NCBI GenBank assembly: GCA_964603145.1
Contig: CAZRTW010000002.1
Coordinates: 1-36,421, forward strand
Direction: 5' to 3'
Source of the DNA: an uncultured Candidatus Saccharibacteria bacterium
GTDB taxonomy: Bacteria > Patescibacteriota > Minisyncoccia > Phycocordibacterales > UBA9973
DNA: 36,421 nucleotides
Positions 17-25,148 of this stretch are shown in pieces; position 1 is the first letter of the stretch, and each line of letters begins with the position of its first letter. The translations under genes and the position numbers were made by a program. The notes under the pieces are model-generated. The model was not told the origin of the DNA. It made no database searches and was given only the letters and a program-made list of their open reading frames with translations.

Positions 17-487
17 ATGAAACATGAACAAATACAAAATGATGTGCTGGGGATGCTCGGGGCTCTTGGGTATGAGGGCGCTGATGTAGCGGTTACGTAT
101 GATGACGGAGCAAATACGCTCTGGTTCTCAATCACCTCTCCACATACACGACTCCTTCTCACACGAGAAGCCGAAGCGCTTTCCGCACTCAACCATCTTG
201 CTGCACGCATAGTTGAGAAAACAAACACACCTGAATTGCGAGGGCCGCGTATTGTAGTGGACGCGAACAATCATGAGAAGAAAAAGATTGATACACTCCG
301 AACAACGGCGCATATGATGGCAGAGCGCGCTCGTTATTTTAAAGCTTCCGTTGATCTTGAGCCGATGTCAGCGCATAATCGTCGCATCGTCCACGAATTT
401 CTCTCTGAAGCGACTGATATAAAAACAGAATCAGCCGGTGAAGGTCCGGGGCGACACGTCGTCATTAAATATATTGGAGGACTGTAA
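17..487 (+). CDS. jag: Jag/KhpB-family RNA-binding protein (KH + R3H domains)
   Basis: 156-aa ORF. C-terminal R3H signature 'MSAHNRRIVHEFL...ESAGEGPGRHVVI'. Followed by a strong hairpin at 520-557. Confidence 0.8.
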   Translation: MKHEQIQNDVLGMLGALGYEGADVAVTYDDGANTLWFSITSPHTRLLLTREAEALSALNHLAARIVEKTNTPELRGPRIVVDANNHEKKKIDTLRTTAHMMAERARYFKASVDLEPMSAHNRRIVHEFLSEATDIKTESAGEGPGRHVVIKYIGGL

Positions 488-578: not shown

Positions 579-1892
579 TTATTGTTCCTTGATCTCCCCC
601 ATATTGAGCGCCCAGAGTGATTCAGTATTTTTGTCGATAAACACGAGATATGTTTCAGTTGAGTCAAGAGAGAGGCGGATTGCGTCAAGATTATTTCCTT
701 CCCCATTTGAAATTTCATACATAATTCCAGTTGAGGCATCGATTTTCCAAAAGCTATCATTAAAGTGAGTTACCCCTTGGTACCAACTATCAGGGTATTC
801 TCCTCGTGTAGCTGTTTTTGAAGCTGCACAATAAAACACAAGAGAGTTCTTTGCCCAGATACATTTTTCCGGCAGTGTTTGTAGCCCGATATTAATATCA
901 GAGCCATCAGAAAGGCGTTTGATATGGAGTGTAAGACCACCACCTCCAGAAACATTGTAGAGGAGGGATTTACCATCCGGGCTGATTTTTGTTGTGAGGC
1001 CGGTCACCCCACCTGCAATTTTCTGGAATACTCCGCTCTTTGGAACGAAATATGCTTGGCCAGGAAGAAGCGCTGTCGCCTTTGTTGTGAGGACCGGCAC
1101 ACCACTAGCCCAATCGAGGAGCCATTCAGAAAATGAACTGGAGAAGAGCTGTTTCTTTCCTGTGCCATCGGATTTCATACTGATGCCTGCTACGCCGTTG
1201 CCGGTTGGGAGAAGAAAGAGAATATTTTTACCGTCAGTAGAAAAAGTAATATCAACAATATTGTCTGGGAGGAATTCTCCTTTTACCGTCCCGTCAGATG
1301 ATGTTGTCGTTGGGGCGACACGGCGGCCTAGATAGGTTGCAACACCTTGGTTATCGTCTTTTACGTAACGGAAAATAATTGTTTCTCCCCCGTCGCCAAA
1401 ATACGCTTCAGCCGTTCGAGAAAGCACAGTGCCAGATGTCTTCTTGCTATTTTGCCCTGTGATCTCTACATCATAGAGATAGCCAGTGCCACGTTCGGCA
1501 AAACGAACAACCGGAATCTTTGAAGCGGGAATCGGACTACCACTTGGGTCGTTGATACTATAGTCAGGAGTGCCTTCTGGAGGAGGAGGGAGCACTGTGG
1601 CCCCTGCGACTACCTTGTTCGAGAGTTTGGTAAGACGCTTTGGGCCGGAAGATGTGCTCGGGGTTTCAGAATCCGGATTTTCCCCGCCGATTGTTCCAGT
1701 CGTAGGATTTTCCGTATTTGGAGTATTGTTGTTCCCGAATGGGAAGAGCGAACTCAAGATACTTTTTTGAGTGCCTGGCTCTCCATTCTGGCTATTTTTA
1801 TATGCTTGATATACCCAAACACCCAAAATAATAAGGGCGAGTGCAACAAGAATAATGATTTTTTTTCGAGACATAAAATACGCTTTCTCCAT
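579..1892 (-). CDS. Membrane-anchored protein with TolB-like (PD40-type) beta-propeller repeats; function unknown
   Basis: N-terminal TM 'IIILVALALIILGVWVY', a low-complexity linker, and recurring 'S(T/P)DGK..L' motifs (FSTDGKNILFLL, ISPDGKSLLYNV). An alternative start at ATG 1874 (MSRKKIII...) is plausible because TATAAT (1891-1896) overlaps the ATG at 1892. Confidence 0.7.
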   Translation of the reverse strand: MEKAYFMSRKKIIILVALALIILGVWVYQAYKNSQNGEPGTQKSILSSLFPFGNNNTPNTENPTTGTIGGENPDSETPSTSSGPKRLTKLSNKVVAGATVLPPPPEGTPDYSINDPSGSPIPASKIPVVRFAERGTGYLYDVEITGQNSKKTSGTVLSRTAEAYFGDGGETIIFRYVKDDNQGVATYLGRRVAPTTTSSDGTVKGEFLPDNIVDITFSTDGKNILFLLPTGNGVAGISMKSDGTGKKQLFSSSFSEWLLDWASGVPVLTTKATALLPGQAYFVPKSGVFQKIAGGVTGLTTKISPDGKSLLYNVSGGGGLTLHIKRLSDGSDINIGLQTLPEKCIWAKNSLVFYCAASKTATRGEYPDSWYQGVTHFNDSFWKIDASTGIMYEISNGEGNNLDAIRLSLDSTETYLVFIDKNTESLWALNMGEIKEQ

Positions 1893-1924: not shown

Positions 1925-3754
1925 TTATCTCGCCCAGCCGCAGTGCACATGATTCCAATGGTCTGCACGGGTGTTAAAGCCAGTGGCCTTACAAAGTCCG
2001 GTGATATTTTTCCCATTTGCATCCTTTGGGTAGGAATCGCATGGCCCAAGAAGTTCGGTCGCTCCTGCGAGCTTACATGCTCCTCCTATGGCTTTTACAC
2101 GGGGGAGATCTGTCGCTCGGGCGGATATATCGAATGCAACTCCGAGATAGTGTCGTGAATCAGCGCTGTGGTCTCCCCCTAGGATTTCGCTCACACTTAT
2201 TGGGCTACTTGAAGCATCTGAAGCAGCAATCAATCCTGAGAGCATCTCGGCACTAAGCGCAACTTGCTTTGACCCTACATCACTACGTGCGCTTGTCCAT
2301 GCAAGAAGATTTTTTGAAGTATCAATAATATTTTGTTGTGGGCTTGAACGACTGTCCCCCTTTTGGTCAGCTTGGAAAGTAATTTTTGAATTTTTAAGAA
2401 TATCTTCCGCAAGTTTCTGTGCGCTTCCTGTAACGATCGTAATGTTTGTTGGTGGCGTGACTGTTGTTGGGATGGTTCCATCGGTATCAGTTATTGGACC
2501 TTCTCCCCCTAAATCTACCCCCGTAATATTCACCGAAACATCAGTCAGGGCGGGGTTAATAGTATTAAGCAGAATATATGAACCAAGCGCGAGAAGAAGT
2601 CCAAAGAGCGCATTCATAATACGGCTCTTAGCACCCTCCTTCTCTCCAAGAGAGATAGTCGACATATACTCAATACCACCGATCACGATCATAAGTACTG
2701 CTAGTACTCCGATGATACCAATGACGAGCTTAATGATGCTTTCGATATAAATACCAACCCCCTCTTTCACATTGATCTTGCCAGTTGGATCGATATTCCC
2801 ATTCGCGTCTGGTATTGGGAGTGGAGCGAGCATGCAGTATGTGTCGGTACCTTCACTGATACAGTTGTATCCATTCGGAGCGGCATTTGTTGGTTTATCA
2901 ACGATCGGAGTGTAGTACTCAGGAATAGTAAATGACCCCAAATTCCACATGGATGGTTCAGTAAGCCAAGCTCCCTCTATTCGTTGACGATTCAGTCCGA
3001 TACAATATGTTCCGCTCGGGAGATTATTATGCAGCCCCTTTCCCCACCAGTCTTTAATAGAATAGAGAGAACGGTCTTCATTCAAAAATGAGTCAACGGC
3101 TCCGCCTTCAACCGTTGTTGTTCCATTGTATGGGTTATGCTCACTCCCCTTCCATGTATTATCTTGCAAGCAAGCTCCTTTGGAGTTTGTTTCAGTCCCA
3201 AGAACCATCTGATATTTTGCTTCAACATTTGGGTCAGTAATATCAATTTTGACCTCAACCCATGGGGTGCTGTCACTATTAACTGAGGCATACGCAAGTT
3301 TAAATTTTTCTTTATTAACTTTGTTTGAGGTGACTGTAATTTTTCGGGTATTTGCGTATGGGCTGAAATCAAAATCCTTGAATGTGTTTACTCCGAGTTT
3401 TGTTGTGCGCTCATTAGATTCGAACCATCCTGTGCAATAAGCTCCATCAGGGAGGTCCTTCCATGTGTATGTAAGTTCGTACGGTTTTACGCCGTTCGTT
3501 TTTGGTGTAGCAAATTCTCGAGAAACGTATTTAGAATTAAATGTGCAGTCATCATCTTTTTCTGTTCCGAGGGCGAACTTAAGCGTGCCATCGTATGTAT
3601 CGTAGTATTGCAGCTTTACAACGTATCCTCCGTTTCCATCCATGAGTGGAGCTGATGATTGTTCCACATTGTCTCGTGCGAAAGCACTACCCGCCGGAAC
3701 GAGCAGAAGAAGCAATACTGTAAAGCCAATTACCCATGATGTATTTTTTTTCAT
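1925..3754 (-). CDS. Secreted modular protein: duplicated Cys-containing N-domain + VirB2/TrbC-like pilin hairpin + C-terminal LAS/M15-type zinc peptidase
   Basis: Signal peptide 'VLLLLLVPAGSAFA'. Two hydrophobic helices (aa ~335-362 and ~379-398) are separated by the charged loop 'STISLGEKEGAKSR'. The C-terminus has 'SRHYLGVAFD' (SxHxxGxAxD) and 'NHVHCG' (HxH) zinc-ligand motifs. The start lies 4 nt after the stop of the upstream gene. Confidence 0.8.
   Translation of the reverse strand: MKKNTSWVIGFTVLLLLLVPAGSAFARDNVEQSSAPLMDGNGGYVVKLQYYDTYDGTLKFALGTEKDDDCTFNSKYVSREFATPKTNGVKPYELTYTWKDLPDGAYCTGWFESNERTTKLGVNTFKDFDFSPYANTRKITVTSNKVNKEKFKLAYASVNSDSTPWVEVKIDITDPNVEAKYQMVLGTETNSKGACLQDNTWKGSEHNPYNGTTTVEGGAVDSFLNEDRSLYSIKDWWGKGLHNNLPSGTYCIGLNRQRIEGAWLTEPSMWNLGSFTIPEYYTPIVDKPTNAAPNGYNCISEGTDTYCMLAPLPIPDANGNIDPTGKINVKEGVGIYIESIIKLVIGIIGVLAVLMIVIGGIEYMSTISLGEKEGAKSRIMNALFGLLLALGSYILLNTINPALTDVSVNITGVDLGGEGPITDTDGTIPTTVTPPTNITIVTGSAQKLAEDILKNSKITFQADQKGDSRSSPQQNIIDTSKNLLAWTSARSDVGSKQVALSAEMLSGLIAASDASSSPISVSEILGGDHSADSRHYLGVAFDISARATDLPRVKAIGGACKLAGATELLGPCDSYPKDANGKNITGLCKATGFNTRADHWNHVHCGWAR
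2504..2839 (-). repeat. Copy 1 of a perfect 336-bp direct repeat (pilin-hairpin cassette)
   Basis: A base-by-base comparison shows 336/336 identity with 5525-5860 (offset 3021). Identity ends abruptly at both edges. Confidence 0.97.
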
Positions 3755-3758
3755 GTGA

Positions 3759-4760
3759 TTATTCGAGCGTCAATTGAAGACTACTTTCTGCTTCTTGGAA
3801 CAATCTGCTTGGGTTCATAATGCTTACAAAGAGCGAAGCACTTCCTTTTGTGGTTGTGTCACGATGAAGAAAGAGAACACCAGGAGTTTTTGGAGTAGGG
3901 AGCGGGTCGCCGTTTAATTCCCAATCATATTTAAGAGCTGCTGATGTTGGGCTTTTTTTCGAGAAGAAGTATGGCAAAACAATAACAGTTGTGTCACTTC
4001 CTGAAACCGAGTGCACTCCGGTGAGAGCAGTATCAAAAAGTGGACCATAGAGCGGGCTACCAGCATACCAGAGAACCTTAGGCTGGTATCCGTTAACACG
4101 AGCATTTCCTTTAGTGCTTACGGTTCCATCAGGTGTTGAAACAGAAACGGAAGCACTCTTTGATTGCGCGAGGTATGTAAGAGATGTTTTAAAAGAGTCA
4201 ATGCCATATCCTGATGCATTTTCGTCAGGATTGAAATCTTCTTGCCACGAATAAATAAAATTCTGTACTGGCACGAAATTCCCCTTCGTATCCTTTACTT
4301 GAGGGATTGCAACAAATTTGATATCAGATTCCGAAGACGGCAATGCTTTGCCACGATACAGTGGTGGGACTATAGAATCCGTTGACTGCCAGAGAATATC
4401 AACAGTCATTGGAGTTATGACGATTGTTTTAGTGATAGGGACTGATCCAACAGGCACGATGTAAATACCAATAGTTGTCGGTGAGCCGAGCTCTTTTGTG
4501 GTAAAAGTGAAGTGATCTGCCCCTACGCCTACGGCAGATTTTTTGCCGTCCTGTCGCCATTCGATTGTTGAGGATTTTAGGTCAACAACGAAGCTTTTAA
4601 TAGTCAGAGTGACACTCTCGCCTGGGCCAGGATTTTCCGGGGATGCTGTGACGGATATATCGGAATTGAAGTTTCCACCTGTTGGTGTTTGGGCACGGGC
4701 GTGAAGAAGCGGCACAAAAAGCATAGTGAGAAGGAATGCGCCAATAATTCTACGAAACAT
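3759..4760 (-). CDS. Secreted beta-rich (Ig-like) protein, function unknown
   Basis: The internal ATG at 4760 gives the classical signal peptide 'MFRRIIGAFLLTMLFVPLLHARA'. TGCTATACT lies 6 nt upstream. The longer ORF to 4844 would run through hairpin 4776-4808 into the upstream gene. Confidence 0.7.
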   Translation of the reverse strand: MFRRIIGAFLLTMLFVPLLHARAQTPTGGNFNSDISVTASPENPGPGESVTLTIKSFVVDLKSSTIEWRQDGKKSAVGVGADHFTFTTKELGSPTTIGIYIVPVGSVPITKTIVITPMTVDILWQSTDSIVPPLYRGKALPSSESDIKFVAIPQVKDTKGNFVPVQNFIYSWQEDFNPDENASGYGIDSFKTSLTYLAQSKSASVSVSTPDGTVSTKGNARVNGYQPKVLWYAGSPLYGPLFDTALTGVHSVSGSDTTVIVLPYFFSKKSPTSAALKYDWELNGDPLPTPKTPGVLFLHRDTTTKGSASLFVSIMNPSRLFQEAESSLQLTLE

Positions 4761-4766
4761 GCATAT

Positions 4767-4775
4767 AGTATAGCA
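4767..4775 (-). promoter_or_regulatory. Extended -10 box TGCTATACT, 6 nt upstream of ATG 4760
   Basis: Read directly on the minus strand. It immediately follows terminator hairpin 4776-4808. No SD sequence lies between the box and the ATG. Confidence 0.5.
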
Positions 4776-4808
4776 ATAAGCCCTCCGCTTATGAAGCGGA
4801 GGGCTTAT
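4776..4808 (-). terminator. Hairpin terminator after CDS 4814-6325
   Basis: 13-bp stem (ataagccctccgc / gcggagggcttat) with a 7-nt loop. The U-tract is weak on the minus strand. Confidence 0.6.
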
Positions 4809-4813
4809 TTGTT

Positions 4814-6325
4814 TTACATCCAAGAGCTTGGATGGTCCATGCAATACATCATTTTTTTTGAAGCGTTTCGAGCCTCTTCTAAGTCTGTATTTTTCTTCGT
4901 ATGTTCAGGATTGTCATATGGGCATTCCCATGCTTTTACTGGCTTGTTCGCGGGGATGCAACTTGTTTCATTTTTGCAGTCTTTACTTGGTTTGCACCAT
5001 CCCGGCCCCGCTCCTTGTGCAGCTGCGACATTTCGCCAGTCTGTCCCGCATTGAGTGCTTTGAATGTATCGAATAAATTTCTCCTGAATACAAATAATTT
5101 TATCAATATTTTGGGGGTCAGAAAGCCATGATCCTGTTATTGTTCCAACAACACTACACTGTTTTGCATATGTCTGAGCAGTTGTGGGAAGTTGTTGGAA
5201 AATGCCATAAGCACGTCCATATTTTGTCATTTTACCCGGCTTAGTAATGTCGCAAGCTGATTCTTCTACCATATTTACTTTCATAAAGCGGGCAAGTTCA
5301 GGGTCGGACACAACTGCATCAATGCGAGCTGCATATTTTTTGCACATAGAGGTGATTCCTTCGCAATCCATTTTTCTGTCCCATGGCTTACAAATTTTTG
5401 CCATTTCATCACTTGTTTCCTGAGTGGTTGGCTTTGAAATTTTGACACCGGAATTTGGGTCTTTAACTATAAATTCAGTTTCGGGGGTCACTGTCACACT
5501 TTCTCCTTCTACTAATACCCCACTTCCCCCTAAATCTACCCCCGTAATATTCACCGAAACATCAGTCAGGGCGGGGTTAATAGTATTAAGCAGAATATAT
5601 GAACCAAGCGCGAGAAGAAGTCCAAAGAGCGCATTCATAATACGGCTCTTAGCACCCTCCTTCTCTCCAAGAGAGATAGTCGACATATACTCAATACCAC
5701 CGATCACGATCATAAGTACTGCTAGTACTCCGATGATACCAATGACGAGCTTAATGATGCTTTCGATATAAATACCAACCCCCTCTTTCACATTGATCTT
5801 GCCAGTTGGATCGATATTCCCATTCGCGTCTGGTATTGGGAGTGGAGCGAGCATGCAGTAAGCGCTCGTGTCTGTGCTCACACATCCATAACCGTTCGAG
5901 GCAGGTGGCTTGGTTGTGTCATCCGGATCTATCGTTGTTGTTGTGACAGGAGCTGTTTTTGTGGTAAATGTTCCGGTCAGTTTTGAGAAAAACGAATTAT
6001 CCTCAGGATAAATAGTATAACTATAGAGTGAACCAGTATTTAATCCTTTACATGCGACAATAAACTTTTCTGTGGTCGAAACTTGGCTACCTGGTTCCTT
6101 AGTTTCTTTTCCATCCTTGTCCACGCAAGTGATGAACATTTTTGTTTTAAAATCCTTTACCGAGCCAAGTTCAACCGCAAAAACTGCGATTGTGGTAGTG
6201 ATATCTTCCTGTACGATTTTTGCGCTTGTTGCTGCTTGTGCGAAGCCAGTGCCAAGCAAAAATACTCCAACGAAAAGGACTACACCTACCTTTGTCCAAA
6301 ATGTAGAACTGAAAATTTTTCTCAT
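4814..6325 (-). CDS. Secreted modular protein: N-domain + identical VirB2/TrbC-like pilin hairpin + C-terminal SLT-type lytic transglycosylase (VirB1-like)
   Basis: Signal peptide 'VVLFVGVFLLGTGFAQA'. aa 156-267 are identical to aa 306-417 of the 1925-3754 product. The C-domain has 'NMVEESACD...YGRAYGIFQQLPTTA' (catalytic E-S and a GLMQ-like motif of SLT domains). The start is 6 nt after the virB4 stop. Confidence 0.8.
   Translation of the reverse strand: MRKIFSSTFWTKVGVVLFVGVFLLGTGFAQAATSAKIVQEDITTTIAVFAVELGSVKDFKTKMFITCVDKDGKETKEPGSQVSTTEKFIVACKGLNTGSLYSYTIYPEDNSFFSKLTGTFTTKTAPVTTTTIDPDDTTKPPASNGYGCVSTDTSAYCMLAPLPIPDANGNIDPTGKINVKEGVGIYIESIIKLVIGIIGVLAVLMIVIGGIEYMSTISLGEKEGAKSRIMNALFGLLLALGSYILLNTINPALTDVSVNITGVDLGGSGVLVEGESVTVTPETEFIVKDPNSGVKISKPTTQETSDEMAKICKPWDRKMDCEGITSMCKKYAARIDAVVSDPELARFMKVNMVEESACDITKPGKMTKYGRAYGIFQQLPTTAQTYAKQCSVVGTITGSWLSDPQNIDKIICIQEKFIRYIQSTQCGTDWRNVAAAQGAGPGWCKPSKDCKNETSCIPANKPVKAWECPYDNPEHTKKNTDLEEARNASKKMMYCMDHPSSWM
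5525..5860 (-). repeat. Copy 2 of a perfect 336-bp direct repeat (pilin-hairpin cassette)
   Basis: Identical to 2504-2839, in the same orientation and the same reading frame (112 codons). Confidence 0.97.
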
Positions 6326-6331
6326 ACGATA

Positions 6332-8176
6332 CTACTCTACAGCTTTTGACAGCTCATTGCGCGACTTTTGAAGGGCAAGAATCTGTGATGGATCGCTCGT
6401 GATGAGCTGGTCTTCTGTGTATGAAGCAATAATCTTAATTGCCACGTGTTTGAGACCTGCAAAGAAGATTCCCTCACCTTTACTACACTCAAGCAGAAGG
6501 TATTTTTCTTCGTCTGTCAGATTGAATGTTTTTTGGAGCGCCTCTACGGTTGATGGAGATTGTTTAAGAAGGAGTTGCAGACTTGAGTTTGTGATGATTG
6601 GCACGCCGTATGGGCTCTTCATAAAGTCGCCCACATCTTGGGTGATAGTTGCAAGACCCAAGAAATATTTTCGCCCACGTTTTGCAATTGAAAAGAGGAA
6701 CGATGCGGTATCGTCTGATTTCATCATCCACCATGCCTCGTCCACCACCAAGAGTCGTTTTTTTATGTTTTTGCGCACTTCATTCCAGATGAAATGCGTC
6801 ACGATGTTCATCGCCGCTGGTTTCAAATCGTCTTCCATGTCACGCACAGAGAAGACTACAAACTTTTTATTAATATCCACATTTGATGGCTGGTTGATGA
6901 ACCCTGCCCATGAGCCGTGCGTATATTTAGAGAGACGCGCAACCAACGAATCTGTTCCTTCCATACCGGAGAGGACCATTTCAAAGTCAGAGAGAAGCGG
7001 TGGTTCGATTTGGGCAAAATCAGAATCAGGAGTGATGTCTTTGATCGCATAGTTTTCCATAATCGCGCGATCGATGAGTGAATCTTCTTCTGGAGTGAGG
7101 CCGCCGAGCATAATACGGAAAAGACCAACAAGGTTAATCACGTTTCCACGGAGTACATCAGTATTGGTCTCCCCTTCTCCTGGGAGCGGGAGGTCAAATG
7201 GATTGATGTGGCTACCTGAGTTGAGGGAAATATTAAAGTAACGACCGCCAAGCGCTTCGGCCAAGCGTTCGTATTCACGTTCTGGGTCGATCACAATCAC
7301 TTCCGTTTCGAACATGAGTGATCGGATGATCTCAAGTTTTGTCGCGTATGATTTACCGGCACCGGAGGTCGCGAAAATAATTGAGTTGTAGTTATCGAGC
7401 GAGAATCGATCGAAAATGATAAGTGAAGAGTTCTGTCTATTCACGCCATACAGAATTCCCTTGTCTGAAGTAAGATCGAATGAAACAAACGGGAAGAAGC
7501 TCGAGAGCGGTTCAGAATTGAGTTTCTGATAAATCCGGAGATGGTCGTCCTCAAGCGGAAGAATGCTTTTAAAGCCATCATCCTGTTGGAAGAGGGCCGG
7601 CTTGAAGTAAATGAGTTTAGACTCAAGGATTGATTTGATTTCGTTCTCAATCTTGTAGAGTTCCGTGTCATTGTCTGCGTAAATAGTGAGATATAGTCCT
7701 ACATCAAACATTTTTTCTTGGGCTTGGGTAAGGCGGTCGCGCAAATCCTCAAGGTTCTGGTTTGCCACATCAAGTTCCGGGTCGCGCACCAGACCTTTTG
7801 ATTCGCGAGTCATAATCTGACTTTGTACTTCTGCCACTTTTTTCTGGAAATTTCGAAGAACGATTGCTGTTTCAACTGGGTGGATCACAATCGAAATATC
7901 AAATACTTTGTCGAGGTTAATGATTGGGGTGAGCCAGTTGTCGTTGATGGTTGAAGGATATGAAATAACGAAGTAGGTTCGGGCAATTTTGTCGCCGAGG
8001 TTGATGGACTTTGGTTCAATCTTAAGCGCAGATGGCGCAATAATGTCTTTGAGTTCGAGTGTGGCTGCCTCGTAGATCTGGTCTGGCAGAACAGGCATGG
8101 CATTTGACTGAATGCGCGTGGAGCTCTGCGCATTTTTGCTCGTATTCGTATTTCCAAAAAGTCCAAAAAATGCCAT
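6332..8176 (-). CDS. virB4: VirB4/TrbE/CagE-family type IV secretion ATPase (middle + ATPase domains)
   Basis: Walker A 'FATSGAGKSYATK', Walker B 'RLLVVDEAWWMM'. The N-terminal part 'IAPSALKIEPKSINLGDKIARTYFVISYP' is typical of Gram-positive VirB4 homologues. Confidence 0.85.
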   Translation of the reverse strand: MAFFGLFGNTNTSKNAQSSTRIQSNAMPVLPDQIYEAATLELKDIIAPSALKIEPKSINLGDKIARTYFVISYPSTINDNWLTPIINLDKVFDISIVIHPVETAIVLRNFQKKVAEVQSQIMTRESKGLVRDPELDVANQNLEDLRDRLTQAQEKMFDVGLYLTIYADNDTELYKIENEIKSILESKLIYFKPALFQQDDGFKSILPLEDDHLRIYQKLNSEPLSSFFPFVSFDLTSDKGILYGVNRQNSSLIIFDRFSLDNYNSIIFATSGAGKSYATKLEIIRSLMFETEVIVIDPEREYERLAEALGGRYFNISLNSGSHINPFDLPLPGEGETNTDVLRGNVINLVGLFRIMLGGLTPEEDSLIDRAIMENYAIKDITPDSDFAQIEPPLLSDFEMVLSGMEGTDSLVARLSKYTHGSWAGFINQPSNVDINKKFVVFSVRDMEDDLKPAAMNIVTHFIWNEVRKNIKKRLLVVDEAWWMMKSDDTASFLFSIAKRGRKYFLGLATITQDVGDFMKSPYGVPIITNSSLQLLLKQSPSTVEALQKTFNLTDEEKYLLLECSKGEGIFFAGLKHVAIKIIASYTEDQLITSDPSQILALQKSRNELSKAVE

Positions 8177-8181
8177 AAAAA

Positions 8182-8829
8182 TTATTGCACCCCTTCCAGC
8201 TTAATAGCCGGCTGGATATCTCCCGGGTTAAATGTCTTATAGAAAAGTTCAATCACTTCTTCTGTTTGGAGACGCTCACAGCGAGCGCCACAGCTTGCAA
8301 GCCCACCTGAAATAACTGATACACGTTCATCAAGCTGAGTACGGCGTTCTTCGAAATTTGCATCATCGACTTTTTTCTTATTTTTCTCCCCTCCTCCGCC
8401 AAAAATCTTTGAGAAAAATCCCTGCTTTGAATTAAGCGCTGCCTCTTCGTAGGGAATAACAACATAGAAATACTTTCGCATAATGGAAACCTGTTCAGTA
8501 AATTCACGTACGAAGTTAATGTATCCAAGAGTCTGGAGTTTTAGGAGGGGTTCGCGCTGTTCAGCTACTTTGCTCTCAAGCATGATGAGGTATGGACGAA
8601 TATCAAGGCGTCGAGATTGTACAACAATCTGCACCGGAAAATCGAGAGAGTTTAAAAAGCCTTGGAATTGGCGGATAACGGCGATTTGTTCCTCGGCAGA
8701 TTTGAGGGCAAGGTTTACGGAAGAAACGGCCAAAATAGCGCGAAGTGCGCCGTCTTTGAGCACCACAGTTCCCTCTCGTACTTCTTTGATTGGTACGAAT
8801 TCTTGAGTAGCGGTTGCAGAAATTGCCAC
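8182..8829 (-). CDS. VirB4 N-terminal-domain-like protein encoded as a separate ORF
   Basis: GTG start. 'FVPIKEVREGTVVLKDGALRAILAVSSVNLALKSAEEQ...' resembles the N-terminal ~200 aa of full-length Gram-positive VirB4 proteins. The stop is 5 nt before the virB4 ATG, in another frame. 215 + 614 aa is about the length of an unsplit VirB4. Confidence 0.6.
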   Translation of the reverse strand: MAISATATQEFVPIKEVREGTVVLKDGALRAILAVSSVNLALKSAEEQIAVIRQFQGFLNSLDFPVQIVVQSRRLDIRPYLIMLESKVAEQREPLLKLQTLGYINFVREFTEQVSIMRKYFYVVIPYEEAALNSKQGFFSKIFGGGGEKNKKKVDDANFEERRTQLDERVSVISGGLASCGARCERLQTEEVIELFYKTFNPGDIQPAIKLEGVQ

Positions 8830-8860: not shown

Positions 8861-8896
8861 AAGAATAAAACCCCATAACTATGGGGTTTTATTCTT
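8861..8896 (-). terminator. Hairpin terminator after the PrgI-like gene
   Basis: 15-bp stem (aagaataaaacccca / tggggttttattctt) with a 6-nt loop. It overlaps the stop codon at 8895-8897. Confidence 0.75.
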
Positions 8897-9311
8897 AGCG
8901 TCGGTTTGTTTTATCAAGTACGTCGAGGCCCCAAGCAATATCATGAAGTTTTGATTCAGTAATACGTGGGATAAAAACAGGATTTTTTGCTTTTTCTTCG
9001 GCGTCTTTCTCCTCTTTTGATTTTCGCTTCTTTTTTTCTTGCTTCCAGACATAGAGTTTATCGCTAAATGCATACGTAAACGCAGATTCAACGATATTTA
9101 TGAATGGTTTGTCGTTCACTTTGATAAAGGCGAGAGTGAAGGCGAATACGGCAACTGGTATAGCAACAATAATCCCAAAGAAGAGCGGTAGAAGTTTCAG
9201 TGCAAGGAAACAAAGACCCCCTCCTCCAGCGAGATACACGAATTGGCGGAATGTTAGTTGCCCAAAAATCTTATCTTCGACATCAATAAATTGTGGCACT
9301 GAGAATCTCAT
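8895..9311 (-). CDS. PrgI/VirB3-like small membrane protein
   Basis: 'MRFSVPQFIDVEDKIFGQLTFRQFVYL' followed by two TM helices, which is the pattern of PrgI/TcpE-type VirB3 analogues. It has its own promoter-like box and terminator. Confidence 0.65.
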   Translation of the reverse strand: MRFSVPQFIDVEDKIFGQLTFRQFVYLAGGGGLCFLALKLLPLFFGIIVAIPVAVFAFTLAFIKVNDKPFINIVESAFTYAFSDKLYVWKQEKKKRKSKEEKDAEEKAKNPVFIPRITESKLHDIAWGLDVLDKTNRR

Positions 9312-10272: not shown

Positions 10273-13068
10273 TTAGTGCCCATGCCCGTCCCCTCCCGCA
10301 TGTCCATGATCATCATGCCCGTGGTCGTCGTGTCCATGATCAGAGCCACTTGCCTTTATTCCCGATGCATCAACCTTGATAACAGGGTTGAGTGGGGCTC
10401 CTTGTTTTCCTCGGTGGTCGTCAGCACCGGCGTTTGCTGCGGCTGCATCAATGTTACGCGGGGTCCAACTGTTGATCATGTCCTTAGTATTTGCAGAACT
10501 TTGTCTGACAATATCAGTTACACCATATTTGAAGATATTTCCAAAGTTTTCAATTGCGGAAATTATGCCTTTGTAATTCTTAAATTCTTCAAGATTTAGT
10601 TTAAAGGAGCCCATAACATCCTTGGTTTTTTCTTTGCGTTCACCAAGATCGAGGTGTCCGGTACGAATTATACTTCCGGAAGAATCAAGAAGGTCTCCAT
10701 GGAGTGCGTAATTTTGCTGTGCGAGCTGCATATGAGTGAGTGATTTAGCACGATCGTTCTCATTTCGTTTCTGCATGCTCTGAAGCTGAGCAATAGTTTT
10801 TCCATGTGATCCAGTAAGATCGGCGCGAGAGACATCGTGATCAGTAACAAGTTCGTCGTCAGCCTTCTTAGCTTTATGTTCAACGTGTTCTTTAAAGTAG
10901 CTTGCCGTTGTCCTGCCCATGTCGATATCCTGTTTATCAATGGTGTGCATGACCGTTTTACCATCTTTATCTCTAATAGCTTGCCCGTCTCGGCCAAGTA
11001 CTGCGATTTGTTTACCAAGAGCAAGCTCCGGATGATCTTTATCTCCGAGCTTAATTTTTGAGACTCCTTCTGTAACATTCAATAATGCCTTTTCAAGCGC
11101 TTCTTTTTCCTTGTTTGCTGCATACCATTCACCAGACTTAGTATCCATACTATTCTTTTTATCTGCCTGTGAAAGAGTAGAGCTAAGATTTTTTACCTTA
11201 TCTCGAGCCGCTCTAAGTTCAATATTGATATCCTTTTTGGCTGTATCTCGTTCATCAAGCGTATCATCATAGCCATTTTGCTGGTCATGGTTATGGCCAA
11301 GCTTTTTCTTCATTGCATCGAGTTTTGCGGCTTTAGCATTCATTTCACCTTCAAATCCTCCGGCCGCACGCTGCATTGAAAGGGCACCAAAACTGCCCAT
11401 GTTCATACCAGTAAATTGGCGGGTTGTTGCTCCCATGCCTGTTTGACGCCAGTCGTATGAACGAGCCGCACGTTTTTGCGCGCTCTCGACTTTTTTAAAC
11501 ATATCTTTCTGCATGGTCTGAAAGCGGGAGTCTTTTTTCATTTCTGCTTCAGACATTCCTTCCATATCTGTAGCTGAGAGTTTAAATTTTTTCGCGAACA
11601 TTTCTTTGGTTGCATTTGTTACACGGCCAGATGCCATGTCGAGGTTTGCTTCATTCTTAGCAAAGTTCATTGCGCGACCTCCAAGGATTCGTCGGCCCGC
11701 AAGGGAAGCGACACCAGAAACCCCGCCAAGTGCAAGCCCCCCAGCAAGTCCAATTCCTTTTTGTGCAAGGTTTGCTACTACTTGTCCGAATTCTCCCGCA
11801 GAAGATTTTACGTACTTCGTCGCTTTGAGGATCATCACAACCAGCATCGCAAAGAAGATGAGCATGATGAACAATGTTGCGTATGAACTATGTGTTGCTG
11901 CGAAGGAGTCTCTTACCATCTGACTCTTTGCCATGATGGAAATAAGAAGCAGGAAGAAGAAATAAATCGGAGCGCCAAAGGCAACGGCAAGAAGATCCGC
12001 CCACCAATGATCCCAGCCAACACCATGAATGTGTTTTGTTTTTGGAATGATGTAACTCACAAAGGCGATTGGTGCGAAGACAATGGCAATCCAGAGACTA
12101 ACCATGCGTCCGAGGCAGGCCATGGCGGCAATAAAGAGTGACCAAGCCATGACGAAGTAGACGATTCCCACAAGAATGAGGAGCCCCATAACCGTGGAAG
12201 GAGGGATATCACCGATTATTCCGTTTGGTGAGAGTCCCTGCCAGAATTTCTTACTTTGGAATTTTTGCGGTTCGAATGCTTGGACCAATTGCGTACTGAT
12301 AGATTTTGGCGGAGTCGCTCCGTTTCCATATACACCACCTACTGATCCGGCATTTTTTTCTCCGTCTACTACGACAACCGATGAGGCCCCGATTTGATTA
12401 TAGAAAACTAAGGCCAGCGTATTTGATATATCAATCACCACCTCGGTGATGAACATGCTGAAGTTTATGATAAGGGCGATCAGAACAATCGATGCCAGCA
12501 TCTTTTTGGGGTTCGCGTGGGCAATTTCAATATCGAGCACGAAGGAGAGTGCTGTAAAGAGGAGAATCAAAATAAGAAAAATATTGGCGAAGTCGCGTGT
12601 TATACGCCAGCCTTCTGCAATAAATTCCGCCCCGCTATAGTAGGTGCTCTGCAGCGTAATAGCAGCGAGTGTGTCAAAGAACGAGGCAGAGAGATACATG
12701 AATTTCGCACCAATCAGGTATGGGAAGAAGTAGAAGAGATATTCAAGACAGCCGATGAGCGTACCGCTAAAGAGGAGGCCACATTGGTCCTCGATTGCCT
12801 GCTCAATACTATATTTATCACTTGTATTTTTTGCCTTAGTCGCCTCTTCTTCAGCTTGTGATACTGCAATCGATGAAAGTATTTGGACGGAAGGGTAAAT
12901 CAACTGCGCCGTTGCTCTTTTAGGGGCAAGCATGGGAGAAAAAACTCCCAGTAAAACTGAAGTTAAAAGTATCGGAATAACAATACGCTTCATAATGCGT
13001 ATGCGTCCTCCTATTTTATTTTTTCTTCGGCTAAAGATTTGCATTCTGTCCTGGTTTGCACCGCACAT
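10273..13068 (-). CDS. Polytopic membrane protein, VirB6/TrbL-like (TcpH/ConG-type) with a long hydrophilic C-terminal domain and His-rich tail
   Basis: Signal-like N-terminus and multiple TM helices across aa ~100-460. A ~470-aa charged, coiled-coil-like tail ends in 'GSDHGHDDHGHDDHGHAGGDGHGH'. The start is ambiguous: ATG 13068 has TATACT 10 nt upstream, and ATG 12993 (MKRIVIPILL...) has AGGAGG 13 nt upstream. Confidence 0.7.
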   Translation of the reverse strand: MCGANQDRMQIFSRRKNKIGGRIRIMKRIVIPILLTSVLLGVFSPMLAPKRATAQLIYPSVQILSSIAVSQAEEEATKAKNTSDKYSIEQAIEDQCGLLFSGTLIGCLEYLFYFFPYLIGAKFMYLSASFFDTLAAITLQSTYYSGAEFIAEGWRITRDFANIFLILILLFTALSFVLDIEIAHANPKKMLASIVLIALIINFSMFITEVVIDISNTLALVFYNQIGASSVVVVDGEKNAGSVGGVYGNGATPPKSISTQLVQAFEPQKFQSKKFWQGLSPNGIIGDIPPSTVMGLLILVGIVYFVMAWSLFIAAMACLGRMVSLWIAIVFAPIAFVSYIIPKTKHIHGVGWDHWWADLLAVAFGAPIYFFFLLLISIMAKSQMVRDSFAATHSSYATLFIMLIFFAMLVVMILKATKYVKSSAGEFGQVVANLAQKGIGLAGGLALGGVSGVASLAGRRILGGRAMNFAKNEANLDMASGRVTNATKEMFAKKFKLSATDMEGMSEAEMKKDSRFQTMQKDMFKKVESAQKRAARSYDWRQTGMGATTRQFTGMNMGSFGALSMQRAAGGFEGEMNAKAAKLDAMKKKLGHNHDQQNGYDDTLDERDTAKKDINIELRAARDKVKNLSSTLSQADKKNSMDTKSGEWYAANKEKEALEKALLNVTEGVSKIKLGDKDHPELALGKQIAVLGRDGQAIRDKDGKTVMHTIDKQDIDMGRTTASYFKEHVEHKAKKADDELVTDHDVSRADLTGSHGKTIAQLQSMQKRNENDRAKSLTHMQLAQQNYALHGDLLDSSGSIIRTGHLDLGERKEKTKDVMGSFKLNLEEFKNYKGIISAIENFGNIFKYGVTDIVRQSSANTKDMINSWTPRNIDAAAANAGADDHRGKQGAPLNPVIKVDASGIKASGSDHGHDDHGHDDHGHAGGDGHGH

Positions 13069-13076
13069 AACTCTTA

Positions 13077-15845
13077 CTAGTATATATTGATAATCGCCTC
13101 AAGTCCGGCAAGAGCGTATTTCAACGGTTGGTCATTAATCGTTACAACATCATCATTCTTAACGACATTCTTCTCGGTTTGTTTCCCAAACTTTGCCTCG
13201 AAGTGAGGAACTTGGTCAGCCCCCTGCCCCATCGCATAGTGTACGTCAGGGAGCATTGAGTATCCGACATCGGTAAAGGTATCTTCAAATGCAATAAATT
13301 CTGCACGGCCATCATATGCCCCGTATCCCGCAGATGGCGCCATTACTGGGATTTCTTCCAATATTGTTCTTGGGTAAAACATGCGTGCCTTTGGAGCACT
13401 GTATGCCGCGCCGTTTGTGTCAGTTACACATGTTTCAATGTATCCACCCTTGCCTTCGTAGTCAGAGAGTTCATTTTTAAGTGCTACAAGTGCGTCTTCC
13501 TGCTTGTTAACATCGTCAAGGCTGTGAATTTTTGGAGCGATAAGATCAAAGGTACTGCTGATGCGACGAAGCTCAACTTGGTATGGAGTCAAAATCGCAA
13601 TACTTTTTCCTTGTGTTTCAAGGAAGTCTTGCTGATACCAATACCACTTATCGTGAGGAATAACTGGCGCTGTTGGAGTTGGTGGCGTAATTACAGTACC
13701 CGTTCCTGTGGTAAGGGTGGCTATACCAAGCTGTTGCGGAGCGATTGTTGTGTTAGTGAAGAGCGTTGTGGTCGTTGTTTGTGTGTGGTCAATATATCCT
13801 GCAAATGTCGGGAGTTTGTTGATGCGGGCAACAAGGCTATTTAGTTGCTCGACAGTTGCCTTACTGCTTGTGATCAAAATCTTGTTGTCGTGAAGCGCTT
13901 TTTTGTAAGCACTAACATTTCGGAATTTAGTCTCATTGATTGTGTATTCAAGCGGTAGATTTAATGTGATGTCCGGATTATATTCAGGCAAATATGTCTG
14001 ATCAACAATATCAGCGTAACGATTAAAGAGAGTGTTGAAAATATTTACGATAGAGTTGTGCCCGTTTACTTTGAGGTTGTCCTCGACAGTAACATGTGTT
14101 GTCGGCGGAGGATTCTGTTGCTTATTCGGGAAGTAGTAATCATCACTTGGCTGCGCTGGCGTGTAGCTCAAGAAATGTGAAACAACACCAGCAAAGAATT
14201 TCTCATTGCGCTTATCGCTCGTTGCGTTTTTTAGGTTTAGGAAGTTTATTGGATCGAGAATTTTATTCACAATGAGTGATCCCTGGCTGATTGCCGCGTC
14301 AGCATTCGCAGGAATATTATCCGAACTTGAGGTGAATTCTCTCAAGTTTTCTACCGCATCTTGTCTCCACCCTGGATGTGGTCCTGGTACACAGAAGTCG
14401 AGTTTGTATACGGCTGTAATAAGGCGTGCTGCTTGCTGATTTTGTTCTTCCAGCGCTTGCTGGTACCCCCGTGGCTTCGGGTCAAGAGCATTTTTGGGAG
14501 TGTAATCCTCATTTGGAATGATAAGCGGGATATCCTTGAAGACATTGAATGTTCTGTTTGAATTGAGCCATGAACCATTTGTATTAGGGTCTACTCCCCC
14601 AACAACATCGATTGAAGGATTTACGAATGAGCCATTGTTCGTGTATTGCGATGGGGCAGAACTTGCATCTGTTGTTGCAAGTGCCGCGAGACCTCGTTGC
14701 ATAAGTTGGTTGGTGAGTGCATTGAAAATTGCTGTGAGATCTGCGGTAAGATCCTGGCCAAGACCAAGCTGATCGATTGGAGAACCAAGAACTTTGTTAA
14801 GACTTGCTGCGACCACGCTTCCTGGAGTTTGTGTCGCGTACTGTGTACAGGTGTTATTGAAGACAACTTCGCGAAGACGCGCAGCTTCTTTTTCGCTTGA
14901 TGGATCATCCGGCAACGCGCGCATTTTCGCCCGTGCCTCTGCTGCAGTTTTGTCGGAGCTGTCATTATAGGTACTTGGTGCTACACAAATTTTTGTATCA
15001 AGAAATCCGGCGTTACGCATAAGTTGATCGCGGATGTCATACGCAGGATTGTAGTAGGTTCCCTGCTTTCGTGCAGCTATTTCATTCTGTGCTCCCATCT
15101 GGAAGCCGATCGGATTGTTTCCTGTTTGGAATTGATGATCAAAAGCTACCCAACCCCCTTCAAGAAAACTACGCTCGAAATCTGCTACTGTTGGTGGGCG
15201 GGAGTATGTGTTGTACTGCTGAGCAAGTACGCGATCAAGACTGTACTGTGCTCGCTGTTCGAATGTACGGCTCATGTTGCTTACAATTCCTTGCGCGACA
15301 TTGCGACCGAACGGGTAATTTTTTGCATCAAAGGCAATATTGCCGACAAATTTTTCTGTCGCTTGATCACCAATTGCTTTTAGGAAAGATTTTTCATCCT
15401 TTGGGAAAAATGAACTACCGCCTTTAAATCCGCGGTTGATCCAGTTTACTGTGGCAACTGTGAGTTGGCGTAAAATAACTTGAGCTGCAGCTTTTTCAAC
15501 TGCCTTAGTACAAGTGATATCGTTTGCTGTTGTCGCAGAAGCATTCGCAATTTTTTCAGCTGTTTCTGAATCTTGCACGACGTTGATCGGGATTGAGTTT
15601 GATCCTGATGCCCCTGTCCCCATTGTGCTTCCGCTACTACTGTTACCGCCAAAGATGCCGCTGATTCCTGAACTAATTTGATCTTTATGGCAGGAAATTT
15701 CTGCTGCTGCAATTGCACCAATAGTATCTACAGCAATTGTGGAGAGTGATGTTGCGTATGCCATCGTCACGCTTTGAAACGTGATGACAAGCACGAGAAA
15801 AACCGCAAAAAAACGTTTTAGCGCGCCATATGCAGTCTGTTTCAT
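13077..15845 (-). CDS. Large (922 aa) secreted or N-terminally anchored protein, no recognisable domain
   Basis: N-terminal hydrophobic segment 'FFAVFLVLVITFQSVTMAYA'. Thr/Pro-rich linker 'TTTTTLFTNTTIAPQQLGIATLTTGTGTVITPPTPTAP'. TATACT lies 8 nt upstream of the ATG. Confidence 0.75.
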   Translation of the reverse strand: MKQTAYGALKRFFAVFLVLVITFQSVTMAYATSLSTIAVDTIGAIAAAEISCHKDQISSGISGIFGGNSSSGSTMGTGASGSNSIPINVVQDSETAEKIANASATTANDITCTKAVEKAAAQVILRQLTVATVNWINRGFKGGSSFFPKDEKSFLKAIGDQATEKFVGNIAFDAKNYPFGRNVAQGIVSNMSRTFEQRAQYSLDRVLAQQYNTYSRPPTVADFERSFLEGGWVAFDHQFQTGNNPIGFQMGAQNEIAARKQGTYYNPAYDIRDQLMRNAGFLDTKICVAPSTYNDSSDKTAAEARAKMRALPDDPSSEKEAARLREVVFNNTCTQYATQTPGSVVAASLNKVLGSPIDQLGLGQDLTADLTAIFNALTNQLMQRGLAALATTDASSAPSQYTNNGSFVNPSIDVVGGVDPNTNGSWLNSNRTFNVFKDIPLIIPNEDYTPKNALDPKPRGYQQALEEQNQQAARLITAVYKLDFCVPGPHPGWRQDAVENLREFTSSSDNIPANADAAISQGSLIVNKILDPINFLNLKNATSDKRNEKFFAGVVSHFLSYTPAQPSDDYYFPNKQQNPPPTTHVTVEDNLKVNGHNSIVNIFNTLFNRYADIVDQTYLPEYNPDITLNLPLEYTINETKFRNVSAYKKALHDNKILITSSKATVEQLNSLVARINKLPTFAGYIDHTQTTTTTLFTNTTIAPQQLGIATLTTGTGTVITPPTPTAPVIPHDKWYWYQQDFLETQGKSIAILTPYQVELRRISSTFDLIAPKIHSLDDVNKQEDALVALKNELSDYEGKGGYIETCVTDTNGAAYSAPKARMFYPRTILEEIPVMAPSAGYGAYDGRAEFIAFEDTFTDVGYSMLPDVHYAMGQGADQVPHFEAKFGKQTEKNVVKNDDVVTINDQPLKYALAGLEAIINIY
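13079..13084 (-). promoter_or_regulatory. -10-like TATACT, 10 nt upstream of ATG 13068
   Basis: It overlaps the last codons and stop of CDS 13077-15845. It has no TGn, and the start codon of the downstream gene is ambiguous. Confidence 0.3.
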
Positions 15846-22431: not shown

Positions 22432-22458
22432 AAAAAAGCCGCATTATGCGGCCTTTTT
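22432..22458 (-). terminator. Intrinsic terminator at the end of CDS 22444-25038
   Basis: Stem gccgca/tgcggc. The loop 'tta' is the stop codon itself, flanked by A6 and T5. Confidence 0.55.
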
Positions 22459-25038: not shown

Positions 25039-25090
25039 AAGGCAAATTAACTGTCCATAGTATGCCACGTTTTTTGTTGTATATAAATAG

Positions 25091-25126
25091 AAGAAGACCA
25101 AGTTCGATTGTGAACTTGGTCTTCTT
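25091..25126 (-). terminator. Hairpin terminator after CDS 25149-25916
   Basis: 15-bp perfect stem (aagaagaccaagttc / gaacttggtcttctt) with a 6-nt loop. Confidence 0.7.
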
Positions 25127-25148
25127 GATGGTTTATAGGGGCTGACTG

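Follow-up and report, generated by a model that had tools for sequence, protein, structure and literature searches.

Two closely spaced genes in a type IV secretion system (T4SS) cluster of an uncultured Candidatus Saccharibacteria bacterium encode proteins, here called ProtA and ProtB, that by profile evidence each contain a complete VirB2-type pilin module, which is followed by a predicted peptidoglycan-cleaving enzyme. The genes lie in the window, that is, the whole stretch of 36,421 nucleotides that was analyzed (contig CAZRTW010000002.1). Between positions 1925 and 6325, the open reading frame list gives three close-packed minus-strand genes, coding for ProtB, a 333-amino-acid protein, and ProtA. 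The two fusions combine known kinds of protein, a VirB2-type pilin and a VirB1-type hydrolase, and are not a new category. They are most likely functional equivalents of VirB1, PrgK, TraG, or CwlT that are built on a pilin module in place of a plain membrane anchor. The features of this region are as follows.

1925 to 3754, minus strand: ProtA, 609 amino acids; open reading frame with domain boundaries set by hydropathy and a C-terminal domain common to 21 homologues
3677 to 3754, minus strand: ProtA signal peptide, residues 1 to 26, with a basic n-region, a hydrophobic core, and an AxA site
2840 to 3676, minus strand: ProtA variable extracytoplasmic N-domain, residues 27 to 305, with low identity to orthologues
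2504 to 2839, minus strand: ProtA pilin module, residues 306 to 417 (YCMLAPLP...LNTINP...VDLGG), first transmembrane helix, basic loop, and second transmembrane helix; PF18895 match, cassette copy 1
1928 to 2437, minus strand: predicted LAS metallopeptidase head of ProtA, residues 440 to 609; invariant residues, Hedgehog profile match, and AlphaFold2 fold
3759 to 4760, minus strand: conserved secreted or anchored protein of 333 amino acids, start set at the ATG of MFRRIIG..., recognized by its position between or before the pilin-enzyme genes
4814 to 6325, minus strand: ProtB, 503 amino acids; open reading frame with domain boundaries set by hydropathy, identical to database protein P0021
5525 to 5860, minus strand: ProtB pilin module, residues 156 to 267; cassette copy 2
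4817 to 5440, minus strand: predicted lytic transglycosylase head of ProtB with a goose-lysozyme fold, residues 296 to 503; alignment, profiles, and AlphaFold2 fold

ProtA and ProtB share one layout, with a signal peptide, a variable N-domain, a two-helix hairpin, a linker, and an enzyme head; the N-domain of ProtB is short. This is the order of parts that the original prediction had proposed, and it agrees with the hydropathy profiles, which show exactly three hydrophobic segments per protein, namely, the signal peptide and the two helices. The signal peptide of ProtA, MKKNTSWVIGFTVLLLLLVPAGSAFA, ends in SAFA before RD, and that of ProtB (residues 1 to 31) ends in FAQA before AT. The helices span approximately residues 340 to 360 and 379 to 396 in ProtA and residues 190 to 210 and 229 to 246 in ProtB. 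They are about 18 residues apart and are joined by the loop IEYMSTISLGEKEGAKSR, which carries the conserved basic motif K..GK.RI. In both proteins the N terminus is a cleavable signal peptide, and the anchor is the internal pilin hairpin, not an N-terminal single transmembrane helix or a lipoprotein anchor. With this topology the loop would face the cytoplasm, and the N-domain and the enzyme head would both lie outside the membrane. Both heads contain invariant cysteines, which fit with an extracytoplasmic location. In relatives, the position of the N-domain is occupied by fn3, Ig-like, TIG, or DUF5018 domains.

The profile matches identify the hairpin as a true T4SS pilin module. When the 80-residue module was scanned alone against PF18895 (T4SS_pilin), it scored 30.4 bits (E = 4e-7) against a cut-off of 26.6 bits; in full-length ProtA and ProtB, the scores were 24.8 and 24.0 bits, slightly below that cut-off. 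Among nonredundant related modules, all 31 matched PF18895, 18 of the 31 matched PF04956 (TrbC/VirB2; best E, 4.8e-5), and 11 matched DUF6112. The NCBIfam pilin-like model NF045849 (Mbov_0395) gave an E value of 1.6e-3 with the ProtA module. These matches uphold the pilin-type hairpin that the original prediction had set as one of the points on which it should stand or fall. In a word-indexed database, a module profile found 414 proteins, and the top 120 of these are all stand-alone pilins of 68 to 140 residues that are 40 to 64% identical to the module of the window.

In the stand-alone pilins from candidate phyla radiation (CPR) bacteria, LLAPLPG comes right behind the signal peptide, and the protein ends soon after LNTINPxL; both motifs flank the module in the window, and this module is 45 to 64% identical to these pilins. 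Because these start and end motifs coincide with the ends of the module, ProtA and ProtB contain an entire mature pilin, with the N-domain inserted behind the signal peptide and the enzyme appended. The fused proteins are far longer than stand-alone pilins, whose mature form has approximately 70 to 110 residues, and in them the module has large domains on either side. Across 16 orthologues of ProtA, the module has a median identity of 61%, compared with 43% in the enzyme head and 23% in the N-domain. A generic double-transmembrane anchor was considered and rejected on the basis of the PF18895 membership, the identity to stand-alone pilins, and the finding that no other part of the protein is as well conserved as the module.

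The two pilin modules of the window are encoded by an exact 336-nucleotide repeat, with 100% DNA identity between positions 2504 to 2839 and 5525 to 5860. It spans the codons from YCMLAPLP to VDLGG, and identity falls to background at both edges. Locus L001, from an independent metagenome-assembled genome, contains these two genes as well, with an exact repeat of its own that spans 379 nucleotides and differs in sequence. At the protein level, the same-contig pairs P0004/P0024, P0006/P0027, and P0034/P0037 are identical at 131, 126, and 110 positions over the module, respectively. The pairs P0002/P0026 and P0023/P0036 share 319 and 412 identical residues, which cover the N-domain and the pilin up to the pilin end, and their heads differ. 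These comparisons indicate that the cassette evolves in concert within genomes and that heads are exchanged behind it. Since the last two pairs are identical as far as the pilin end and then continue into different heads, they suggest that the exchange proceeds through recombination at the cassette edge. An assembly artifact was ruled out as the source of the identical cassettes by the distinct repeat of L001 and by two further genomes at the protein level; it is also countered by both copies running in frame into different flanks. With its head swapping and the concerted evolution of its cassette, this locus lends itself to the study of how a secretion machine evolves by modules.

The assignment of both heads as enzymes rests on family alignments and profiles together with predicted structures, and on this evidence the head of ProtA is a zinc peptidase of the LAS superfamily that forms a family of its own. 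In an alignment of 15 homologues, H529, H535, G538, D542, H599, H602, and H604 are invariant, as are four cysteines. The predicted zinc ligands are H535, D542, and H604, and the predicted catalytic residues are H529, D598, and H602. The LAS/M15 motifs quoted in the original prediction fall among these positions (SRHYLGVAFD, S533 to D542; HVH, H602 to H604). The profile of the head matched the N-domains of Sonic, Indian, and Desert hedgehog in the PDB (E = 2.5e-4), with a match that covers gHS..S.HY.GRA.DI and then H.HC. We take the motif residues of ProtA to be equivalent to H135, H141, D148, H181, and H183 of Sonic hedgehog (Shh), in our own mapping of the Shh numbering. In relatives, sub-threshold Pfam matches were obtained to Peptidase_M15_3 (7 of 15; best E, 1e-3) and to HH_signal (6 of 15).

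The AlphaFold2 model of the ProtA head has a predicted local distance difference test score (pLDDT) of 92.5. In Foldseek searches it matched the Shh N-domain (probability, 0.98 to 0.99; TM-score, 0.42 to 0.52) and the Zn DD-peptidase of Streptomyces albus (1lbu; probability, 0.96), and VldE and MepA also matched, with TM-scores of about 0.3 to 0.5 overall. The Hedgehog N-domain and the S. albus enzyme (MEROPS M15A), which gave the best profile and fold matches, share the motifs HS..S.HY.G.A.D and H.HC with the ProtA head; their identity to this head is only about 15 to 21%, and the ProtA head reaches no Pfam family threshold. Members of the ProtA head family, at 30 to 37% identity, also occur in Streptomyces, Plantactinospora, Actinoplanes, Herpetosiphon, other Chloroflexi, and Deinococcus (L015-L083).

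The head of ProtB is best described as a divergent lytic transglycosylase that has kept its catalytic glutamate, a statement that again draws on alignments and on a modeled fold. The catalytic pair is E355-S356, and G374 and Q377 belong to a GLMQ-type motif. Across 13 homologues, E355, G374, and Q377 are invariant, and S356 is nearly so (at least 90%). E355-S356 align with the ES of MltC and Slt70. The SLT motifs pointed out in the original prediction correspond to these sites (VEES, V353 to S356; AYGIFQQ, residues 372 to 378), and its further concern, that the C-terminal domains might lack catalytic residues once properly aligned, applies to neither head. Given the PF18895 score of the hairpin, the invariant peptidase residues with their Hedgehog profile match, and the conserved Glu-Ser pair, the quoted motifs are not due to chance. 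Queried alone in the word-indexed database, the ProtB head found two proteins only; the other homologues came from the ProtA search by way of phmmer. Local phmmer connected the ProtB head with ten more sequences, among them the PF01464-carrying P0059 and P0074. A broad profile, whose match depends on intermediate sequences, matched MltC (E = 1.2e-8), Slt70 (8.5e-7), and EmtA in the PDB. In hhalign, the tight subfamily aligned with PF01464-annotated heads of pilin-SLT proteins at 97.3% probability (E = 2e-11), with the ES, GLMQ, and AYNGG regions in register. The AlphaFold2 model (pLDDT, 90.8) matched MltE, Slt70, MltD, and goose lysozyme in Foldseek, with a probability of 1.00 and TM-scores of 0.55 to 0.61.

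The genes of ProtB, the 333-amino-acid protein, and ProtA form the tail of one gene string with gaps of a few to approximately 65 nucleotides. In reading order, the string codes for proteins of 922, 931, and 291 amino acids, PrgI, a TrsD/TraC-like protein, VirB4, ProtB, the 333-amino-acid protein, ProtA, and a 437-amino-acid protein. Only 6 nucleotides separate the end of virB4 from the start of the ProtB gene. The other members of the string are listed below.

13077 to 15845, minus strand: protein of 922 amino acids, first gene of the string
10273 to 13068, minus strand: polytopic membrane protein of 931 amino acids in the VirB6/TrbL position, identified by its conserved position
Between the 931-amino-acid gene and prgI, minus strand: proline-rich protein of 291 amino acids, placed by gene order
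8895 to 9311, minus strand: PrgI (VirB3-like), 138 amino acids; PF12666, E = 1.3e-10
8182 to 8829, minus strand: TrsD/TraC-like protein, 215 amino acids; NF041427 (TrsD), E = 1.2e-6, with matches to the VirB4 N terminus, and PF26593 (TraC-like) in syntenic genes
6332 to 8176, minus strand: VirB4-type ATPase, 614 amino acids; NF045971 (conju_CD1110), E = 2.4e-113, and PF19044, E = 6e-24
579 to 1892, minus strand: conserved, N-terminally anchored protein of 437 amino acids; its gene closes the cluster

The position of the fusions after virB4 is conserved. All seven gene tables of related loci give the order PrgI, TraC-like protein, VirB4, a protein of approximately 330 amino acids, one or two pilin-enzyme genes, and a protein of approximately 440 amino acids. 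The first of these two accompanying proteins measures 326 to 344 residues in the seven tables, and the second measures 433 to 465 residues in all related loci. Where the flank is long enough, the opposite strand beyond the latter gene carries Jag/R3H, YidC, and RnpA, followed by dnaA and dnaN. In L001 the SLT and peptidase versions are two genes, as in the window. L002 and L003 each encode one protein of 964 amino acids with the hairpin, the peptidase, and the SLT domain, and both heads stand behind a single hairpin in P0005, P0007, P0017, and P0018, which have approximately 960 residues. These single chains reinforce the comparison with the two-activity enzyme CwlT drawn in the original prediction. 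Other heads occupy the same slot elsewhere, such as YkuD in L084, NlpC/P60 in L085 and L086, and VanY, along with a second fusion, in the P0058 locus.

This architecture is not rare but common among metagenomic sequences. When the hairpin profile was searched exhaustively, 44,344 cluster representatives were returned at an E value of 1e-3 or below. Among the top 150 matches, a sample biased toward hairpins like the query, there were 94 new single-hairpin proteins, and 80 of the 94 have a C-terminal extension of at least 120 residues. A Pfam peptidoglycan enzyme is recognized in about half of these 80 representatives, with VanY in 11, NlpC/P60 in 7, Peptidase_M15_4 and YkuD in 5 each, SLT_2 in 4, Amidase_5 in 3, Amidase_2 in 2, and SLT, SLT_3, and Extensin-like_C in 1 each.

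The same searches brought up 37 proteins, here termed polypilins, that contain from 2 to at least 9 tandem T4SS pilin hairpins in one polypeptide. The largest number of matched stretches, up to 17 by HMMER, was seen in P0203 (1,775 amino acids), and the cases include P0203-P0233 and others. P0211 consists of a signal peptide and six tandem pilins, P0206 has two full pilin modules and a C-terminal head, and P0233 is also a polypilin. No published description of polypilins was found.

The favored reading, held with evenly balanced confidence, is that ProtA and ProtB are VirB1-type wall-opening enzymes of this T4SS that are tethered by a VirB2-type pilin module. A role in the T4SS is proposed because the genes follow virB4 in a cluster that is conserved across genomes, and the two activities are taken to belong together because single proteins carry both heads. 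Each protein would be exported by the Sec pathway, its signal peptide would be cleaved, and the hairpin would then insert into the membrane with the loop in the cytoplasm and both the N-domain and the head outside. The pilin module would direct the protein to the place of pilin handling, namely, the VirB6-like platform and the PrgI/VirB4 complex. There, the transglycosylase would cut glycan strands and the peptidase would cut peptide stems or cross-links, and their joint action would leave a local opening for the channel or pilus. The variable Ig/fn3-like N-domain could serve as a spacer or a binding domain.

Several observations weigh against parts of this reading. As single sequences, the heads of ProtA and ProtB matched nothing significantly in Pfam, NCBIfam, PHROGs, or the PDB. 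The hairpin of the window itself has no PF04956 (TrbC) match at an E value of 0.01 or below, this match being confined to relatives, and its profile retrieved no solved pilin from the PDB by sequence. The SLT assignment depends on transitive profile evidence and a predicted fold, and the tight SLT subfamily profile alone matched no lytic transglycosylase in the PDB. ProtB has AAAQGAGPG where AAYNGGP is expected, with loss of the Tyr and Asn of the AYNGG motif. In some lineages the head is a YkuD domain, which has an L,D-transpeptidase fold and is not obviously lytic. Moreover, if the module served for anchoring only, its near-perfect conservation and the homogenization of the paralogues would be left unexplained.

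VirB2-like pilins are known from the T4SS clusters of Patescibacteria (PMC10633639, PMC12857230), and in Southlakia epibionticum the T4SS and its pilin array are essential for epibiotic growth (PMC10633639). The function of the T4SS of Patescibacteria has been called completely unknown (PMC11665869), and the building of a pilus by it is still an open question (PMC12857230). A 2025 survey reported 1,135 assemblies with PF18895/VirB2 genes near virB4, noted that most such genomes are without VirB1, and inferred that pilus biogenesis needs no wall hydrolase (PMC12102498). Its supplementary table places "VirB2" two genes past virB4, which is the slot of the fusions described here, and such fusion genes were counted plainly as VirB2 (PMC12102498). 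The present findings suggest that, for a broad clade, the hydrolase is perhaps not missing, as the absence of VirB1 would imply, but fused to the pilin. No description of pilin-hydrolase fusions was found in the literature searched, which does not cover all journals; the original prediction had likewise not recognized the architecture as a described one. The fusions form a Rosetta-stone link that physically joins pilin and wall-cutting functions in a secretion system, and the design may explain how this poorly understood T4SS crosses cell walls.

The closest known systems each share some of these properties. The stand-alone pilins of Patescibacteria (PF18895; SEML1_0014-0019 in S. epibionticum) belong to the same family and have the same end motifs, the same two helices with a basic loop, and the same linkage to virB4. 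They comprise 70 to 140 residues with nothing attached, whereas the window proteins add an N-domain of 120 to 280 residues and an enzyme of approximately 190 to 240 residues. Gram-positive T4SSs have membrane-anchored two-domain hydrolases (PMC12102498). PrgK (pCF10), TraG (pIP501), and CwlT (ICEBs1) resemble the window in joining glycan-cleaving and peptidase activities within a cluster of the VirB4/PrgI type (MPF-FATA-like), and they are membrane tethered with their catalytic domains outside, as proposed here for ProtA and ProtB (PMC12102498). The single chain with both heads found in some relatives of ProtA is CwlT-like, whereas the window splits the activities over two proteins. The systems also differ in the anchor, which in the window proteins is a centrally placed pilin hairpin and in PrgK, TraG, and CwlT an N-terminal helix or lipobox, and in the peptidase, which is LAS/Hedgehog-type in the window and CHAP or NlpC/P60 in those proteins, although NlpC/P60 does occur in other pilin-fusion lineages.

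In S. epibionticum, the genes just downstream of virB4 include SEML1_0006 (lysozyme-like) and SEML1_0007 (an M15B peptidase) (PMC10633639, supplement), and a passage of the 2025 survey calls the peptidase and lysozyme homologues downstream of virB4 essential to epibiotic growth in this organism (PMC12102498). They match the window in position relative to virB4 and in the pairing of a glycosidase with an M15-class peptidase; they differ in that the annotation of Wang et al. gives them no pilin domain and the pilins of S. epibionticum are six separate small genes. An analogous logic is seen in the flagellum, where FlgJ fuses a rod-capping domain to a muramidase and thereby joins part of a wall-crossing machine to a wall opener. 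Functions of the FlgJ type are encoded by separate genes in some lineages and are fused in others. Unlike the pilin fusions, FlgJ involves unrelated proteins and an unrelated machine, and its structural part is a cap or scaffold, not a polymerizing subunit.

The strongest competitor to the tethered-enzyme reading, although clearly less probable, is that VirB4 extracts the modules from the membrane and that they assemble into a VirB2-type tube that displays the Ig-like N-domains and the two hydrolases on its outer surface and passes through the wall of the cell itself to that of a host or partner. The module is complete and has every motif of the stand-alone pilins, and the conserved cytoplasmic loop suggests that it is handled by a cytoplasmic partner. 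The face on which the pilin termini lie in solved conjugative pili is the pilus exterior. In these pili the loop faces the lumen, and in cyclic pilins the N and C termini can be joined by a peptide bond (PMC12037004), so that with such adjacent termini the N- and C-terminal domains could both protrude from one face; the added domains would nonetheless bring approximately 280 and 190 extra residues per subunit, which is sterically demanding on a tube of approximately 9 nm. The identical cassettes, 100% so in the window and in three other genomes, are expected if the paralogues assemble together in one lattice, but they could simply stem from frequent gene conversion between repeats 3 kb apart, and lineages with a single fusion or with both heads in one fusion need no pairing of paralogues. 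The fusions are the only pilin-type genes in the 36-kb window, which contains no stand-alone pilin gene, and the related CPR loci that were scanned showed none in the sequence fetched near their fusion genes (up to 10 kb per side); stand-alone pilins may still be encoded elsewhere in the genome. The polypilins show that covalent links between modules are tolerated. The CPR T4SS and its pilins are essential for epibiotic growth in the single species examined (PMC10633639), yet no CPR T4SS pilus has been seen so far (PMC12857230). Less probable still is the more specific proposal that in this Patescibacteria lineage the T4SS pilus consists solely or mainly of subunits that combine an adhesin-like domain with a peptidoglycan enzyme and cut first the cell's own wall and then that of the host, with heads exchanged by recombination at the cassette end and cassettes kept identical for coassembly. 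If the modules do polymerize, the resulting structure would rank as the first pilus of the conjugative type to carry enzymes.

The remaining explanations are improbable to differing degrees. ProtA and ProtB might be precursors from which cleavage at the LAPLP and LNTINP boundaries releases a mature pilin of approximately 100 residues and free secreted enzymes. The fusion boundaries coincide with the ends of mature stand-alone pilins (LLAPLPG at the start and LNTINPxL at the end), but these motifs are integral conserved parts of stand-alone pilins and not linkers. TrbC and TrhA pilins are trimmed at the C terminus (PMC12037004), and tandem polypilins would be easier to explain if processed; however, the removal of domains of 200 to 300 residues from a VirB2-type pilin is without precedent, and the cluster proteins that were scanned include no maturation protease resembling TraF or a signal peptidase, which makes such processing doubtful. 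Housekeeping autolysins, in which wall enzymes for growth and division happen to sit on a two-helix anchor with no specific role in the T4SS, are harder still to credit. The heads found across lineages do span the whole range of wall remodeling, including YkuD, the cluster adjoins dnaA and a penicillin-binding protein gene in related genomes, and separate YkuD and LysM-M23 enzymes are also encoded in the window. Against this, the slot immediately behind virB4 does not change in any of the loci examined, the anchor belongs to the pilin family and is more conserved than the enzyme, and the equivalent separate enzymes of S. epibionticum are reported, in a passage of the survey, within an essential T4SS locus (PMC10633639, PMC12102498). 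Finally, heads that had lost activity and bound peptidoglycan only, as wall anchors for the T4SS or the pilus base, would agree with the divergence of both heads beyond the Pfam thresholds, with the lost AYNGG tyrosine of ProtB, and with eukaryotic Hedgehog, the closest solved relative of the ProtA head, acting as a ligand rather than an enzyme; the invariance of the zinc-binding and catalytic residues in the ProtA family and of the catalytic glutamate in the ProtB family makes this very unlikely. The fusion also provides reagents for testing, in the form of defined catalytic residues and a defined pilin cassette.

In the remainder of the cluster, the N-terminal part of VirB4 is encoded separately by the TrsD/TraC-like gene, 5 nucleotides upstream of the ATPase gene. 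This split is present in all related loci and is the arrangement published for Patescibacteria (PMC12102498). The 333- and 437-amino-acid proteins both have a hydrophobic segment at the N terminus and border the pilin-enzyme genes in all related loci that were examined, and searches gave no family or PDB match for either except for a weak match to the PD40 repeat in the latter. The 931-amino-acid protein has no Pfam match of its own; its syntenic counterpart in the P0058 locus has a weak match to PF19590 (TrbL_3). Its C-terminal end is a histidine-rich tail, ...SDHGHDDHGHDDHGHAGGDGHGH, which may bind metal.

The window starts with a Jag/R3H gene (17 to 487, plus strand), which in related genomes is followed by yidC, yidD, rnpA, rpmH, dnaA, and dnaN. 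Because this gene lies next to the stretch from yidC to dnaA and dnaN in those genomes, the T4SS cluster probably adjoins the replication origin, with the window stopping just short of the origin region. A T4SS cluster beside the replication origin has been reported for some Patescibacteria (PMC12102498). Outside the cluster, the window encodes two further wall enzymes, a protein with a YkuD domain (25948 to 27096, minus strand; PF03734, E = 2.7e-5) and a LysM-LysM-Peptidase_M23 protein (27327 to 28592, plus strand; E = 2.7e-28). Two Glu/Lys-rich proteins without a Pfam match, of 371 amino acids (21248 to 22363, minus strand) and 912 amino acids (22444 to 25182, minus strand), are also present, and the larger of them contains recurring segments of the type EKLGIPxIEEY/FV.

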